In this document: piece after piece, positions 1,341 through 26,348 of the stretch
Layout of the letters: every line of letters starts with the position of its first letter
Position numbering within the stretch: position 1 is the first letter of the stretch
Assembly (NCBI GenBank): GCA_963704165.1
Contig: CAVPHD010000004.1
Coordinates: 254,429 to 318,428, forward strand
Source: an uncultured delta proteobacterium
GTDB lineage: Bacteria > Myxococcota_A > UBA9160 > SZUA-336
Direction of reading: 5' to 3'
Length of the DNA: 64,000 nucleotides
The notes under the pieces: model-generated
What the model was told of the DNA's origin: nothing
The model's database searches: none
The model's input: the letters and a program-made list of their open reading frames with translations, nothing else
Position numbers and translations under genes: made by a program

Positions 1341-3203
1341 ATGGGAAGAGTCGTCGGAATCGATCTCGGCACCACGAACAGCTGCGTGGCGATCCTCGAG
1401 CGAGGGGAGCCGGTCGTCATCGCGAACAGCGAGGGCAGCCGCACCACCCCGTCGATCGTCGCCGCGAACATGAGTGGTGAGAGACTCTGCGGACAGATCG
1501 CAAAGCGCCAGGGGGTGACCAACCCGGCGAATACGGTCTACGCGGTGAAGCGCCTGATCGGCCGCCGCTTCGACGACGAGTGCGTCGAGCGCTTCCGCGC
1601 CGTCGCCCCATTCGAGATCTGCGAAGCACCGAGCGGTGACGCCTGGGTGAAGCTGCACGAGAAGGAGTGCAGCCCCGAGGAGATCTCTGCGCTCATCCTG
1701 AAGCGCATGAAGGAAACGGCGCAGGACTACCTCGGCGAGGAGGTGACCGAGGCCGTCATCACCGTGCCGGCCTACTTCAACGACGCACAGCGCCAGGCCA
1801 CCAAGGATGCCGGCCGGATCGCGGGCCTGAACGTGCTGCGCATCATCAACGAGCCGACCGCCGCGGCGCTGGCCTATGGGCTCGAGAAGGAAGGGCGCGA
1901 GACGATCGCGGTCTTCGATCTCGGCGGCGGAACCTTCGACGTCTCGATCCTGCGCATCGGAGACTCGGTCTTCGAGGTGCTCTCCACCAACGGCGACACG
2001 TATCTCGGCGGAGAGGACTTCGATCAGGTGATCATGAACTGGCTGGCGGACCGGTTCGCCGAGAAGAACCCGGGCAGCGATCTTCGTACCGATCCGATGG
2101 CGTTGCAGCGGCTCAAAGAAGCCGCGGAACGCGCCAAGCAGGAGCTCTCGTCTTCGGAAGAGACCGACGTGAACCTGCCGTTCATCGCCGCCGACGCCTC
2201 GAGCCCGAAGCACCTGACCGAGGTGGTCACGCGCTCCCAGATCGAGACGTTGGTCGCGGAGCTGATCGAGCGACTGGAAGCGCCCTGCGTGGCCGCGCTC
2301 GCGGACGCGGGCCTCGAGGCGAGCCAGGTCGATCGGGTGATCCTGGTCGGCGGAATGACGCGCATGCCGAGCGTGCAGGCGAAGGTCGAGCAGATCTTCG
2401 GCAAGGCACCGCATCGCGGTGTGAACCCGGACGAGGTCGTCGCGGTCGGAGCTGCGATCCAGGCGGGTGTGCTGAAGGGCGAGGCGGCGGACGTGCTGCT
2501 GCTCGACGTCACGCCGCTCTCGCTCGGCGTCGAGACGCAGGGCGGGATCATGACCAAGATCATCCTGCGCAACACGACGGTCCCGACCCGGAAGAGCGAG
2601 GTCTTCTCGACCACCGAGGACAACCAGAGTCTGGTTCGCATCCACGTCTTGCAGGGCGAGCGCGAACTCGCCGCCGACAACCAGACGCTCGGCCGCTTCG
2701 AGCTGATCGGCATTCCCCCGGCGCCGCGTGGCGTGCCGCAGATCGAGGTCAGCTTCGACATCGACGCGGACGGCATCCTGAACGTGAGTGCCAAGGAGCT
2801 CGGCACCGGTCGCGCGCAGCAGATCCGGGTCTCGGCCTCCGGCGGGTTGAGCCCGGACCAGATCGACCGGCTGGTCGAGGACGGCGCGACCCACGCGGAG
2901 AAGGACGCGGAGCGAAAAGCGGCGGTCGAGCTGCGAAACACGGGCGAGGGCCTGATCTACTCGGTGGAGCAGGCGCTCGATCTCTACGGTGCCCAGCTCG
3001 AGGCGAGCGAGCGCGCCGAGGTCGAGAGCGCCGTCGGGCGCGCGCGAAAGGCGCTGGCCGCCAGCGACATCGACGAGCAGCGCGTGGCCGTCGAGGATCT
3101 GCAGCAGCTCGCCTACCGGATGACCGAGGCGATGTACGAGCGGATCGACGGGGGCACCGCGGTCGCGGATCCGGCCTCGGACGACGAACTGATCGAGGAT
3201 TGA
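1341..3203 (+). CDS. dnaK: Hsp70 chaperone DnaK
   Basis: [50 protein letters not shown] at 1341 preferred over GTG at 1323. Confidence 0.97.
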
Positions 3204-3258
3204 GGCCGGCGGCCGGGCTTGCGCGGGACGATCGAGGCCATAGCCTAGGCGCGCCCCG

Positions 3259-4359
3259 ATGAAGCGCGACTACTACGAGATCCTGGGTGTGGCGCGGGAC
3301 GTGAGCCCGGAGGACCTGAAGAAGGCCTACCGAAAGCTCGCCCATCAGTTCCATCCCGACAAAAACCCCGGCAACCCGGAGGCCGAGGCCGAGTTCAAGG
3401 CGGCCAGCGAAGCCTATGCCGTGCTCTCGGACCCGGAGAAGCGCGCGCAGTACGACCGGGTCGGGCACTCCGCGTTCGGGGCCGGTCAGGGCGGCGACCC
3501 GTTCGCGGGCTTCGATCCGTTCACGAGCTTCGGCGATTTGTTCTCCGAGTTCTTTGGCGGCGACATCTTCGGCCGGAACGGCCGCGGCGGGCGGGGCCGG
3601 CGAGGGGCGGACCTGCGCTACGACCTCGAGGTCGATTTCGGAGTCGCCGCCCTCGGCGGCGAGCAGACGCTGAAGATCCCCAAGCACAAGGCGTGCGCCG
3701 CCTGCTCGGGTGTGGGCGGTGAGCGCGAGACCTGTCCGCGCTGCGGCGGCCGGGGCCAGATCGCGCTGCAGCAGGGCTTCTTCCGCATGGCGCGAACCTG
3801 CGACCGCTGCAGCGGGCTGGGCCAGAGCCTGAAGCGCGCCTGCGCGGAGTGCCGCGGCAAGGGACGGATCGAGACGCTGCAGTCGCTCACCGTGCGCATT
3901 CCCGAGGGCGTCGATACGGGGGTGCGGCTGCGGCTCCAGAGCGAAGGCGAGGCTGGCTACGACGGCGGCCCGCCGGGCGATCTCTTCGTCGTCATCCACG
4001 TCCGGGAGCATCCGCTCTTCGAGCGTGACGGCACGGATCTCCACTGCGAGATCCCGATCTCGATCGCGCAGGCGGCGCTCGGCTGCGAGGTCGAGGTGCC
4101 CAACCTCGACGGCAAGGAAACCGTCACGCTGAAGGCGGGCACGCAGTCCGGCGATCTCGTCCGCTGCCGCGGTCGCGGGCTTCCGAGGCTCGGTGGCGGT
4201 CCGCGTGGCGACATCGTCGCGCGAATCTTCGTCGAGGTCCCGTCGAAGCTCGACGCCCGCCAGCGCGAACTGCTCGAGGAGTTCGCGAGGATCACCGGCG
4301 ACGAGGTCTCGCCACGCCGACGGGGATTCCTCGACAAGCTTCGGGACCTGTTCGAGTGA
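3259..4359 (+). CDS. dnaJ: Chaperone DnaJ
   Basis: J domain (DYYEILG...HPDKN), G/F region, four CxxCxGxG zinc-finger repeats. Confidence 0.97.
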
Positions 4360-22539: not shown

Positions 22540-23142
22540 ATGCATCTCACCAAGCGACAGAAAGAGATCTTCGATTTCATCTGCGAGTACTTGGAACGAG
22601 AAGGGTACGCACCCAGCCTCGAGGAAATCGGCGAGCGCTTCGGGCTCTCGTCGGTGGCGACGGTTCACAAGCACGTGCAGAACCTCGTCGAAAAGAATCT
22701 GCTGCGGAAGGCCTGGAATCGCAGTCGCTCGATCGAGGTCGTTCGCGACGAGCCGGCGCCGACGAGTATCGAGATCCCTCTGCTCGGGCGCGTCGCCGCG
22801 GGACGGCCGATCGAAGCGATCGAAGTTCCGGACACGATCGCCGTCCCGCCCGACATGGTCGCGCGCCGAGACTGCTTCGCACTTCGGGTCGCCGGTGACT
22901 CGATGATCGATGATCACATCGTCGACGGCGACGTGGTCGTGCTCGAAGCGCGCAAGACGCCGCGCACGGGAGAGACGGTCGTCGCGCTGATCCGAGGCGA
23001 GGAGTGCACACTGAAGCGCTTCTTCCAGGACGGGGGAAAGGTACGGCTCGTGCCCGCGAACGCGATGCTCTCGCCCATGGAGTTTCCGGCCGAGGACGTC
23101 CAGGTGCAGGGCGTCGTGATCGGGCTGGTCCGAAACTTCTGA
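22540..23142 (+). CDS. lexA: SOS repressor LexA
   Basis: LTKRQKEI...PSLEEIG...SVATVHKH, cleavage site VAAG, catalytic GDSM and CTLKR. Confidence 0.96.
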   Translation: MHLTKRQKEIFDFICEYLEREGYAPSLEEIGERFGLSSVATVHKHVQNLVEKNLLRKAWNRSRSIEVVRDEPAPTSIEIPLLGRVAAGRPIEAIEVPDTIAVPPDMVARRDCFALRVAGDSMIDDHIVDGDVVVLEARKTPRTGETVVALIRGEECTLKRFFQDGGKVRLVPANAMLSPMEFPAEDVQVQGVVIGLVRNF

Positions 23143-23173: not shown

Positions 23174-23524
23174 GTGCTGATCACCCGCCGCATGGAGTTC
23201 TCGGCCTCGTATCGCGACGGATCGGGCGCCACGTCAGGGCACAATTGGGAACTCGAGGTGACGCTCTCGGGTCCCGTCGACGAAGAGACCGGGATGGTGA
23301 TCGACCTCAAGGACCTCAAGGAGGTCATGGAGCGCGAAGTCGAGGCACGCTTCGACCATCGGTCCCTGAACGACGACACGCCGTACTTTCTCGACCGCCC
23401 CCCGACGCCCGAGGGCTTTGCCGTGCTGATCTTCGAGCTGCTCGACAAGGCCCTGCCCATCGGCCTCCTGCACCGCATACGGCTCAGCCCGACGCGTGAC
23501 CTGACGGTCGAGGTAGACCGGTGA
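23174..23524 (+). CDS. 6-pyruvoyl-tetrahydropterin synthase/QueD-family protein, copy 1 (degenerate zinc site)
   Basis: [36 protein letters not shown]. Confidence 0.85.
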
Positions 23525-23907
23525 TCCGCACGATACGACGCTACGGGTTCTCGGCTGCGCACGTGCTCGCACGTTCGGATTGGAGCGACGCGCGAAACCA
23601 GAGCGTATACGGGAAGTGTGCGAACCCGGCGGGACACGGTCACAACTACCGGATCGAGCTCACGCTCGAGAACGTCAGCGCGCCGGGAAGTGCGATCGAC
23701 GAGATCGTCGAGCGACGCCTCATCACGGAACTCGACGCGCGCCTGCTGAACGAGCAGGTCGCGGCCTTCGAGCGTGTCGTACCGACGGCGGAGAACATCG
23801 CGCGGCACATCTGGGATACGCTCGGCTCGGCGCTCGCGCCGACGCGCCTGGCCAGTGTGCGCCTGATCGAGACGAGCAAGAACTCGGTCGAGTACTTCGG
23901 GAGCTGA
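23521..23907 (+). CDS. 6-pyruvoyl-tetrahydropterin synthase/QueD-family protein, copy 2
   Basis: [31 protein letters not shown]. Confidence 0.9.
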
Positions 23908-23915
23908 CGGCACAG

Positions 23916-24470
23916 ATGAGCAGGGTCGAGGAGTTGATCGAAGAGCTGCTGCGCGAGATCGGCGAGGATCCCGCGCGCGAGGGACTTCAGCGCACGCCCG
24001 GCCGCGTGGCTCGATCCTTCGAGTTCCTCACGCAGGGGTATCAGCTCGATCCTCAGAAGATCCTGAACGAGGCGGTCTTCGAGGAGTCCTACAACGAGAT
24101 GCTGATCGTGAAGGACATCGACTTCTACAGCCTCTGCGAGCACCACATGCTGCCCTTTTTCGGTCGGGCGCACGTGGCCTACGTGCCCAACGGTCGGATC
24201 GTCGGCCTTTCGAAGATCCCGCGGCTGGTCGAGATGTACTCCCGGCGGCTGCAGGTGCAGGAGCGGCTGACCAACGACATCGCGAACGTGATTGAGAAAG
24301 TTCTGCAACCGCGAGGAGTTGCGGTGATCATCGAAGCCCAGCACCTGTGCATGATGATGCGCGGAGTGCAGAAGCAGAACTCGTCCGCGATCTCGAGCGC
24401 GATGCTCGGGGAGTTCGAATCCGACTCCAAGACGCGGGCCGAGTTCGTGCATCTGATCCACAAGTCCTGA
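23916..24470 (+). CDS. folE: GTP cyclohydrolase I
   Basis: [46 protein letters not shown]. Confidence 0.97.
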
Positions 24471-24899: not shown

Positions 24900-26348
24900 A
24901 TGAGCCAGGGACGCTGGACCGAGACAAAGACGACCGATCGGGAGCACTCGAACGTGGACCCGGACGAGGAGGCGGCGCGCAATCGCAACACGCTGCTCTC
25001 CTACTTCAACGACATCGCGAGCATTCCGACGCTGACGAAGGATCAGGAGGTCATGCTCGCGAAGGAGATGGAGTCCGCGACTCACGAGATGCGCTCGGGC
25101 ATCCTCTCTGTCTCGTTCACCTGGCGAGAAGCGATCGACATCTGGCGTGGACTCCAGACCGAGAACCGAGTGACCGCGAAGATGTCCGAGGCCTACGGCT
25201 CCGGAACCCCGGAAGGTGAGGAGCGCGGCGAGAAGCTCGACAAGTGCCTGAAGAAGGTCGAGGCGCTGCTCGCGAAGTACGACGACCTCGCGGCTTCCGG
25301 GAAGGAAGACAAGGCCGGACTCGACAAGCTCGGCGTGAGCATCCAGAAGGCGCTACGCGAGGCAGATCTCTCGATGCAGATCTTCGAGCGCATCCGGCGC
25401 AAGCTGCGCGGAGCCCGCGACACGATGGCGAGCTACGAGCGGCAGATCCGCGATCTGAAGTCGCCCAAGCGTGCGCCGAAGACCGAGAAGGGGAAGGTCG
25501 ATCGCGAGCGCGATCTCCGCACGCTGCGCAAGCAGCTTCGCGAGGTCGAGTTGTCGATGGGCGTCCGCGCACCCGACTTCATCCAGCTGATGGATACCGT
25601 CGATCTCGCCTACGACCGGCTGATGTTCCACAAGAACAAGTTCGTCCAGCACAACTTGAAGCTCGTGATCGCGATCGCCAAGGACTACCGCAACATGGGG
25701 ATCGCGTTCCAGGACTTGATCCAGGAGGGAAACCTCGGGCTGATCCGCGCGGTCGAGAAGTTCGACTACCGGCGTGGCCACAAGTTCTCGACCTACGCCC
25801 TGTGGTGGATTCGGCAGGCGCTCATCCGCGCGATTCAGAACCAGTCGCGGACGATCCGCATCCCGAGCCACATGCACGACACGCTGCTCAAGTACTACCG
25901 AACGTACAACGCGCTCTCGAAGCGACTCGGTCGAGAGCCGAAGACGTCCGAGCTCGCCAAGGAGCTGAAGATCACGGTCGAGCAGACCGAGCGGCTGCAG
26001 AAGATGACGCGCGAGCCGGTCTCACTCGAGACTCAGGTCAAGGGAACTGACTCGAAGGTGCTCAAGGACTTCGTGAAGGATCCCGGAACGGTCTCGCCGC
26101 TCGAGAGCCTCGATCGCCTGCGACTCGAGCGCGCAACCGAGGAGTCGATCTCGCAGCTGAACGAGCGAGAGCGGAACATCCTGCGCTGGCGCTTCGGAAT
26201 GAAGGGCGAGCAGGACCATACGCTCGAGGAGATCGGCGAGAAGCTGGGCCTGTCGCGTGAGCGTGTTCGCCAGCTCGAGGCCCGCGCGATCGAGAAGCTG
26301 CGCCACTCCTCCAAGCAGCGGCTGCTCGAGGCCTTCGCCGAACTCTGA
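24900..26348 (+). CDS. RpoD-like sigma70 factor lacking region 1.1 (group 2-like paralog)
   Basis: Region 1.2 [12 protein letters not shown], long non-conserved region, [36 protein letters not shown], region 4 TLEEIG...SRERVRQLE. Confidence 0.93.

Follow-up and report, generated by a model that had tools for sequence, protein, structure and literature searches.

The best described relatives of the gene pair considered here are the 6-pyruvoyl-tetrahydropterin synthases (PTPS) of animals. The pair, c1 and c2, is located on a 64,000-nucleotide stretch of contig CAVPHD010000004.1 (assembly GCA_963704165.1, positions 254,429 to 318,428) of an uncultured delta proteobacterium assigned to Myxococcota_A. 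This whole stretch is called the window, and coordinates refer to it unless another locus is named. Rat (1B66, 1GTQ) and human (3I2B) PTPS are the best matches of both proteins in sequence and in fold, and the animal enzyme has its active site between subunits of a double ring. The motifs GKCxNPxGHGHNY, PTxEN and ETxxN recur in c2, and TGMV and DH recur in c1. However, the animal enzyme is a homohexamer where each subunit carries all residues of the site, whereas here these residues are split over two genes and at most half of the sites would be complete.

Bacterial PTPS-II are described as proteins of single or dual domain structure, as in bPTPS-II of Synechococcus sp. PCC 7942 (Kong et al. 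2006, FEBS Lett 580:4900, as cited in PMC5227711 and PMC5041015). The Synechococcus enzyme is active in vitro, and Cx5HGH (CxxxxxHGH) is the motif of PTPS-II (both PMC5041015). The pair is similar to bPTPS-II in being of the bacterial Cx5HGH type for tetrahydrobiopterin, with two PTPS modules that would act together. The fused relatives of c1 and c2 also have copy a followed by copy b, with the pocket in the C-terminal module. On the other hand, dual-domain PTPS-II is one polypeptide, and here there are two overlapping genes in non-phototrophic Myxococcota. QueD of E. coli and QueD2 of A. baumannii (PTPS-I; 4NTK, 7V0F; PMC9894224) have the same T-fold double ring with a histidine reaching across the rings; in QueD2 this residue, His68'', is even a zinc ligand (PMC9894224). 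Unlike the pair, they are homo-oligomers with Cx3HGH or Cx4HGH motifs that make carboxy-tetrahydropterin for queuosine, and queuosine genes are absent here. Finally, eukaryotic tRNA-guanine transglycosylase, as it is cited in PMC9894224, is a heterodimer whose catalytic subunit works only with a degenerate paralogue derived from a duplication. Its fold is unrelated, and a donation of catalytic residues by its dead paralogue is not known, whereas c1 would donate two of the three residues of the triad.

Full-text literature searches and matches in the PDB yielded no two-gene or heteromeric PTPS and no trans-complementation between PTPS modules. As far as found, c1 and c2 are a split, reciprocally degenerate form of the already known dual-module bacterial PTPS-II, and complementary degeneration as trans-complementation has not been described.

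Complementary active-site residues of c1 and c2

Both genes are located on the plus strand and have GTG starts. The gene c1 (23174..23524) encodes 116 amino acids and is PTPS-II copy a; c2 (23521..23907) encodes 128 amino acids and is copy b. Both match PF01242 well above the cut-off of 22.4 bits (c1 77.3 bits, c2 80.1 bits), both are below the NCBIfam cut-offs for QueD (TIGR03367) and for general PTPS, and no other PF01242 gene is present in the genome. The closest solved structures are human 3i2b and rat 1b66 for either protein. AlphaFold2 models (pLDDT 94 for c1, 89 for c2) have the expected T-fold order of strands and helices and align to 3i2b in Foldseek with TM scores of 0.91 and 0.80, respectively.

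Residues were assigned from HMMER alignments to rat 1b66, where the rat number equals the chain index plus 4. The protein c2 has all three zinc histidines, His23 (FSAAH), His48 and His50, together with Cys42, Glu107 (PTAEN) and Glu133 (IETSKN). It has retained Asp88, but His89 is replaced by alanine (LDAR), and seven residues, TGMVxxL, are deleted. In c1 the situation is reversed. His23 is replaced by tyrosine (FSASY), Cys42 is absent within a deletion of about 16 residues in the beta1-beta2 insertion, His48 is replaced by serine (SGHNW), and Glu133 by proline. His50 is thus the only zinc histidine of c1, whereas Glu107 (TPEG), the TGMV loop, Asp88 and His89 (FDH; D61-H62 of c1) are all retained. 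In the model of c1, the TGMV segment forms the loop after beta2, at the strand end distal to the zinc ligands. The preliminary description had counted this segment among the parts that a neighbouring subunit may supply. In copy b, loss of the loop accompanies the decay of Asp-His. The Cx5HGH motif is present in c2 (CANPAGHGH) and absent from c1, which has TSGHNW without the cysteine. The Cys42-Asp88-His89 triad is complete in neither polypeptide, and the full set is present in c1 and c2 jointly. The pocket of c1 itself is, on these assignments, predicted to be dead. A preliminary description of the window had quoted motifs for both copies and had proposed that they hold complementary halves of the active site; every quoted motif is present in c1 or c2, and the complementarity was confirmed residue by residue against the rat structure.

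Predicted hetero-oligomeric synthase

We infer, with a probability of roughly 0.6, that c1 and c2 assemble as subunits into a single hetero-oligomeric 6-pyruvoyl-tetrahydropterin synthase with a double ring of the T-fold type, where c2 would supply the pocket and c1 the Asp-His pair in trans. The pocket of c2 would hold zinc on His23, His48 and His50, with Cys42 as the catalytic base and Glu133 as the pterin anchor. The protein c1, its own pocket presumably unable to bind zinc or pterin, would face c2 across the interface of the two rings, insert Asp88-His89 into the c2 pocket, and so complete the Cys-His-Asp relay. The reciprocal sites, composed of the c1 pocket and the c2 Asp-His, would be dead, and half of the potential sites would work. 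FolE, encoded by the adjacent downstream gene, would supply dihydroneopterin triphosphate. The product would be 6-pyruvoyl-tetrahydropterin, feeding a biopterin-type pterin. Physical association, trans-complementation, product and stoichiometry are all predictions from comparative data. If they are correct, this is a T-fold enzyme with its catalytic triad divided between two gene products.

The geometry of known PTPS is compatible with such an exchange. PTPS is a dimer of trimers, and its active sites lie where three neighbouring monomers meet (PMC7546909); the title of Burgisser 1995 names an "intersubunit catalytic triad motif". In QueD2, His68'' comes from the opposite protomer and bridges the rings, and the active site spans both of them; the E. 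coli QueD equivalent of rat His89 is written His71'', with the same double prime (PMC9894224). In the human enzyme, Glu81 of the same helix is at the trimer-trimer interface, and Lys77, equivalent to position 76, is within 6 Å of it (PMC9597361).

The subunits could be arranged as an a3b3 particle of stacked rings or as mixed rings of a and b. Homotypic rings, a stacked on b, would fit the geometry from the literature. On the other hand, topological reasoning places both chain ends of a T-fold at the pole, away from the interface of the rings; the linkers of fused relatives, from the last strand of module 1 to the first strand of module 2, are about 7-12 residues long. Together, short linkers and polar ends suggest that a and b sit side by side in the same ring, which would have four members for two-module chains. 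Ring size does vary in the superfamily, trimers and tetramers both being known (PMC9894224).

Conservation of the reciprocal pattern

The comparison included 105 distinct pairs, 47 from Myxococcota and 58 from other phyla. A phylum-wide genome search provided 30 loci of the window's class, all with the gene order lexA-c1-c2-folE, and further Myxococcota loci were drawn from a species-representative collection. Of the 80 loci from that collection, Myxococcota and other phyla together, 79 have folE after copy b.

In the Myxococcota pairs, the pocket of copy b is absolutely conserved: His23, Cys42, His48, His50, Glu107 and Glu133 are each present in 47/47, whereas Asp88 is retained in 18/47 and His89 in 32/47. 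Copy a has Asp88, His89 and Glu107 in 47/47, His50 in 46/47 and His48 in 40/47; His23 is retained in 9/47, Glu133 in 4/47 and Cys42 in 2/47. The orthologues thus repeat the reciprocal loss seen in the window. The Asp88-His89 pair of copy a is invariant in all 105 pairs and also in 120/120 metagenomic homologues of c1, all of which have TGMV as well. A cysteine aligned with position 42 occurs in one of these 120 proteins, where it is apparently an alignment quirk, and Glu133 is replaced by proline or glutamine in all but 3. The pocket is intact in 120/120 metagenomic homologues of c2, and His89 is present in 3/120. Since the pattern recurs in the 47 Myxococcota pairs and in all 120 metagenomic homologues of either protein, it is not due to chance.

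The composite sites may be compared directly. All components of the site composed of the b pocket and the a Asp-His are invariant. All components of the other site, composed of the a pocket and the b Asp-His, decay, and they do so on both proteins. This is the pattern expected if the sites are shared in one particle and the first type alone is needed; it would be hard to explain if c1 and c2 acted apart. Nor is c1 a decaying gene. Within the genus, dN/dS equals 0.25 for c1, 0.35 for c2 and 0.14 for folE, and the value for c1 implies constraint by purifying selection. The heteromer proposed in the preliminary description is therefore favoured by three kinds of comparative evidence: the invariance of the composite site, purifying selection on c1, and fused relatives with the same split (see below).

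Complementary conservation extends beyond the catalytic residues. Alignment columns kept in copy b and lost in copy a are at positions 16-17, 21, 25, 41-42, 47, 108 and 133-134; those kept in copy a and lost in copy b are at positions 51, 54, 68-69, 72, 87-88, 120-121, 131 and 136. Rat position 76 (K49 of c1, D57 of c2) is lysine in copy a with frequency 1.00 in other phyla and 0.77 in Myxococcota, and aspartate in copy b with frequency 1.00 and 0.98, respectively. These residues may form a hetero-specific salt bridge.

In two loci, L021 and L052, copy a has regained or retained a cysteine with Cx3HGH-like spacing (FGRCAAQHGH), and the other 45 copies differ from them.

Fused relatives

Many two-module proteins (about 270-290 amino acids) and some three-module proteins (about 380-420 amino acids) were retrieved in a profile search of 1.84 billion representatives, with named members from Nitrospirota, Ardenticatena (Chloroflexota) and a cyanobacterium. 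A tree including the fusion domains was poorly resolved, and modules were classified using HMMs of copy a and copy b. By this measure, 65 of 88 scored two-module proteins have the order a then b. Among the 59 two-module proteins that were aligned in full, 55 have an intact C-terminal pocket and 14 an intact N-terminal one, and the reverse pattern does not occur. The division of residues seen in c1 and c2 is found in 25 of the 59, and in 14 of these 25 it is fully reciprocal.

In three-module proteins, the last module carries the zinc and cysteine set HCHH in 13/13 and Glu133 in 10/13, and the upstream modules mostly retain Asp-His. One such chain could form a whole three-membered ring. Proteins of this type with about 400-420 residues are P0241, P0244, P0249, P0257, P0274, P0275, P0286 and P0287, including Ardenticatena maritima and a cluster with a cyanobacterial member; in these the zinc/cysteine pocket is confined to the last module.

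Does c2 act alone?

One possibility is that c2 is the enzyme on its own, a homo-oligomer that needs no Asp-His relay or has other residues in its place, and that c1 is a non-catalytic paralogue with no shared sites, such as a regulator, a stabiliser or a binder of a pterin intermediate. The complete pocket of copy b in 47/47 pairs agrees with this. Moreover, even phyla with two otherwise complete copies show variation at Asp88 and His89 of copy b, which may thus do without the dyad. The N-terminal module lacks both the pocket and Asp-His, next to a complete C-terminal module, in 16 of the 59 two-module proteins. However, the Asp88-His89 pair of c1, next to a destroyed pocket of its own, should then have drifted, and it is invariant in 105/105 pairs and 120/120 homologues. 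Further, c1 evolves slower than c2, and in the window's genus c2 is also without the conserved TGMV loop. We consider independent action of c2 unlikely.

Several observations weigh against the hetero-oligomer as well. Firstly, in sister genera copy b has the full catalytic set and may work alone, and thus the origin of c1 degeneracy by itself is no proof of trans-complementation. Secondly, Glu107 and His50 are retained in c1 although the model has no use for them; the former may serve as a helix cap. Thirdly, a three-membered ring cannot alternate two subunits. Fourthly, biopterin users are scarce: of 71 genomes in the class, 7 have phenylalanine hydroxylase, none of these 7 being from the genus, and 0 have nitric oxide synthase. 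Then, the model leans on Asp88 and His89 being essential, as reported from mutagenesis of rat PTPS. Finally, the model draws limited support from a syntenic fusion, P0242 (positions 3001-3822 of locus L129; JGI 3300027987, Ga0259480_10000119), where c1 and c2 are joined in one open reading frame (ORF) of 273 amino acids, and the gene order is membrane-TPR protein, lexA, fusion, folE, sigma-70. Its junction, GGAACGATGATT, has one inserted A relative to the usual stop/start overlap GGACGATGA. Either the two genes were fused naturally and very recently, or the assembly is wrong at this point; taken alone, the fusion is weak evidence.

Age and stepwise degeneration of the cassette

The cassette of copy a, copy b and folE is not specific to Myxococcota. 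About 60 loci without lexA were found in Acidobacteriota (Terriglobia, Acidoferrum and others), Methylomirabilota and Chloroflexota, and in a Nitrospirota locus a single two-domain PTPS ORF precedes folE. In these phyla both copies usually have the full catalytic set. The catalytic positions that vary among the 58 pairs are all in copy b: Asp88 (54/58), His89 (48/58) and, with a single change, Glu133 (57/58). A tree of 169 sequences has a branch (SH-aLRT support 89) with every copy-a protein on the same side, and therefore the duplication predates the spread of the cassette. By this tree, copy a and copy b form old orthologous groups shared by Myxococcota, Acidobacteriota and other phyla.

The degeneration, unlike the duplication, looks specific to Myxococcota and stepwise. 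Asp-His of copy b seems to have drifted first, in several phyla; the pocket of copy a then appears to have been lost throughout the Myxococcota class. Finally, in the window's genus, copy b seems to have lost His89 and, in part of the genus, the loop. Within this genus His48 of copy a is variable, and the window's c1 does not have it. Copy b of the sister genera in this family retains Asp88-His89. Two claims of the preliminary description have to be narrowed accordingly. An obligate heteromer is predicted for the window's genus, but not for the sister genera, where c2 has its own Asp88-His89. The duplication behind the proposed subfunctionalisation is old, being shared with Acidobacteriota and others, and only the degeneration is confined to Myxococcota. 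If the heteromer is real, the cassettes form a clear evolutionary series, with intermediates between full redundancy and obligate complementarity of the subunits, and how heteromers become irreversible could be tested directly on a small pair that is easy to express.

Could c1 and c2 be separate homo-oligomeric enzymes, catalysing consecutive or different pterin reactions, with a new activity in c1? The full catalytic set in both Acidobacteriota copies makes two activities conceivable there, and copy a and copy b are indeed separately conserved groups of considerable age. However, c1 proteins of Myxococcota have mostly lost His23, and nearly all are without Cys42 (kept in 2/47) and Glu133 (kept in 4/47). 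With one zinc histidine of three, c1 of the window has no pocket left for a substrate. This makes two separate activities quite improbable.

Pathway context

The public name of both proteins is "6-carboxytetrahydropterin synthase" (QueD), and one could suppose that the pair serves queuosine synthesis in this role, or folate synthesis as PTPS-III, bypassing FolB. That c1 and c2 are the sole PF01242 genes, and that the adjacent sole folE must also feed folate, would be in line with such a role. However, QueC is missing in the genome itself, in each of the 12 genomes from the genus and, at class level, in 65 of 71, which makes a role in queuosine synthesis unlikely, whereas FolB is present in the genome itself and in 64 of 71 in the class. 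Neither c1 nor c2 contains the Cx3HGH motif of QueD or the ExxHGH motif of PTPS-III, and both score below the TIGR03367 cut-off. The presence of FolB, together with the lack of ExxHGH, makes a bypass of FolB unlikely too. Moreover, where QueD or a PTPS of the ExxHGH type does occur in the class, it is a separate gene. Overall, a queuosine or folate function is highly improbable.

The assignment of the pair in the preliminary description to a biopterin-type pathway rather than to QueD is supported by Cx5HGH in c2, by the absence of QueC and by the presence of FolB. The lack of QueC and the Cx5HGH motif make the QueD label doubtful; probably it is a systematic misannotation of the whole cassette, wrong for hundreds of genomes of Myxococcota, Acidobacteriota and other phyla. 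The cassette points to a widespread bacterial biopterin-type pathway without a known consumer enzyme. It looks like an orphan pterin pathway, as the known biopterin-dependent enzymes do not explain it. Pterin-4a-carbinolamine dehydratase (PF01329) is uninformative, being present in 69 of 71 genomes with or without the pair.

Class members lacking the pair have another PTPS, the product of a single gene, with about 145 amino acids, ExxHGH and no cysteine, similar to PTPS-III. Such genes were observed in loci L039-L042 (genomes G128, G051, G138 and G223) and in G088, G098, G113, G123 and G153. Several of these genomes also have no FolB, as expected for a FolB bypass. A few genomes of the class carry classical QueD as a third gene.

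Locus organisation and neighbouring genes

The two genes are arranged head to tail in different frames and share the bases GTGA (23521..23524, plus strand), where the GTG start of c2 overlaps the TGA stop of c1. A GAGG sequence (23510..23513, plus strand) inside the end of c1, 7 nucleotides before the GTG, is likely the ribosome-binding site of c2. The junction is conserved, with c1 ending in VEVxR-stop and c2 starting with M/V-I-R. The overlap that the preliminary description had reported recurs in the loci of the window's own family; in other families, by contrast, it is replaced by short gaps. Two-domain PTPS are common and the syntenic fused ORF is one base off the overlapping form, but the suggestion that an indel near 23515-23530 has split a single two-domain gene can practically be dismissed, as separate ORFs are present in 47 Myxococcota and 58 other pairs from independent assemblies, with the same 4-nucleotide overlap across the family and conserved ends of c1 and starts of c2.

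Upstream, lexA (22540..23142, plus strand; 200 amino acids, PF01726 and PF00717) ends 31 base pairs before c1. It is directly upstream and co-directional in all Myxococcota loci examined (the window, L003-L032, L049-L058 and L129), and never upstream of the cassette in the examined loci of Acidobacteriota or other phyla. The shared order, where visible in the window, L129 and the other loci examined, is membrane-TPR protein, lexA, cassette, sigma-70. Beyond copy a, copy b and folE, no conserved neighbours, for example sepiapterin reductase or a glycosyltransferase, were found within 2.5 kb.

SOS control of the supply of pterin or folate precursors is conceivable. A broader scenario, which we offer tentatively and hold to be somewhat less probable than not, is that the cassette records the stepwise locking-in of an obligate heteromer, one type of T-fold site dying piecemeal on two proteins, and that its product feeds a pterin-dependent process, possibly damage- or light-related. 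The latter guess is based on the position of the Myxococcota cassette directly behind lexA. A process of another kind than the known ones is suggested since phenylalanine hydroxylase and nitric oxide synthase are not present.

Downstream, folE (23916..24470, plus strand; GTP cyclohydrolase I, 184 amino acids; PF01227 265 bits, TIGR00063 255 bits) starts 8 base pairs after c2 and is followed by a sigma-70 gene at 24900. Its product, dihydroneopterin triphosphate, is the substrate of PTPS. No second PF01227 gene was found in this genome or in most genomes of the family, and the same enzyme must therefore supply both folate synthesis and the PTPS branch.

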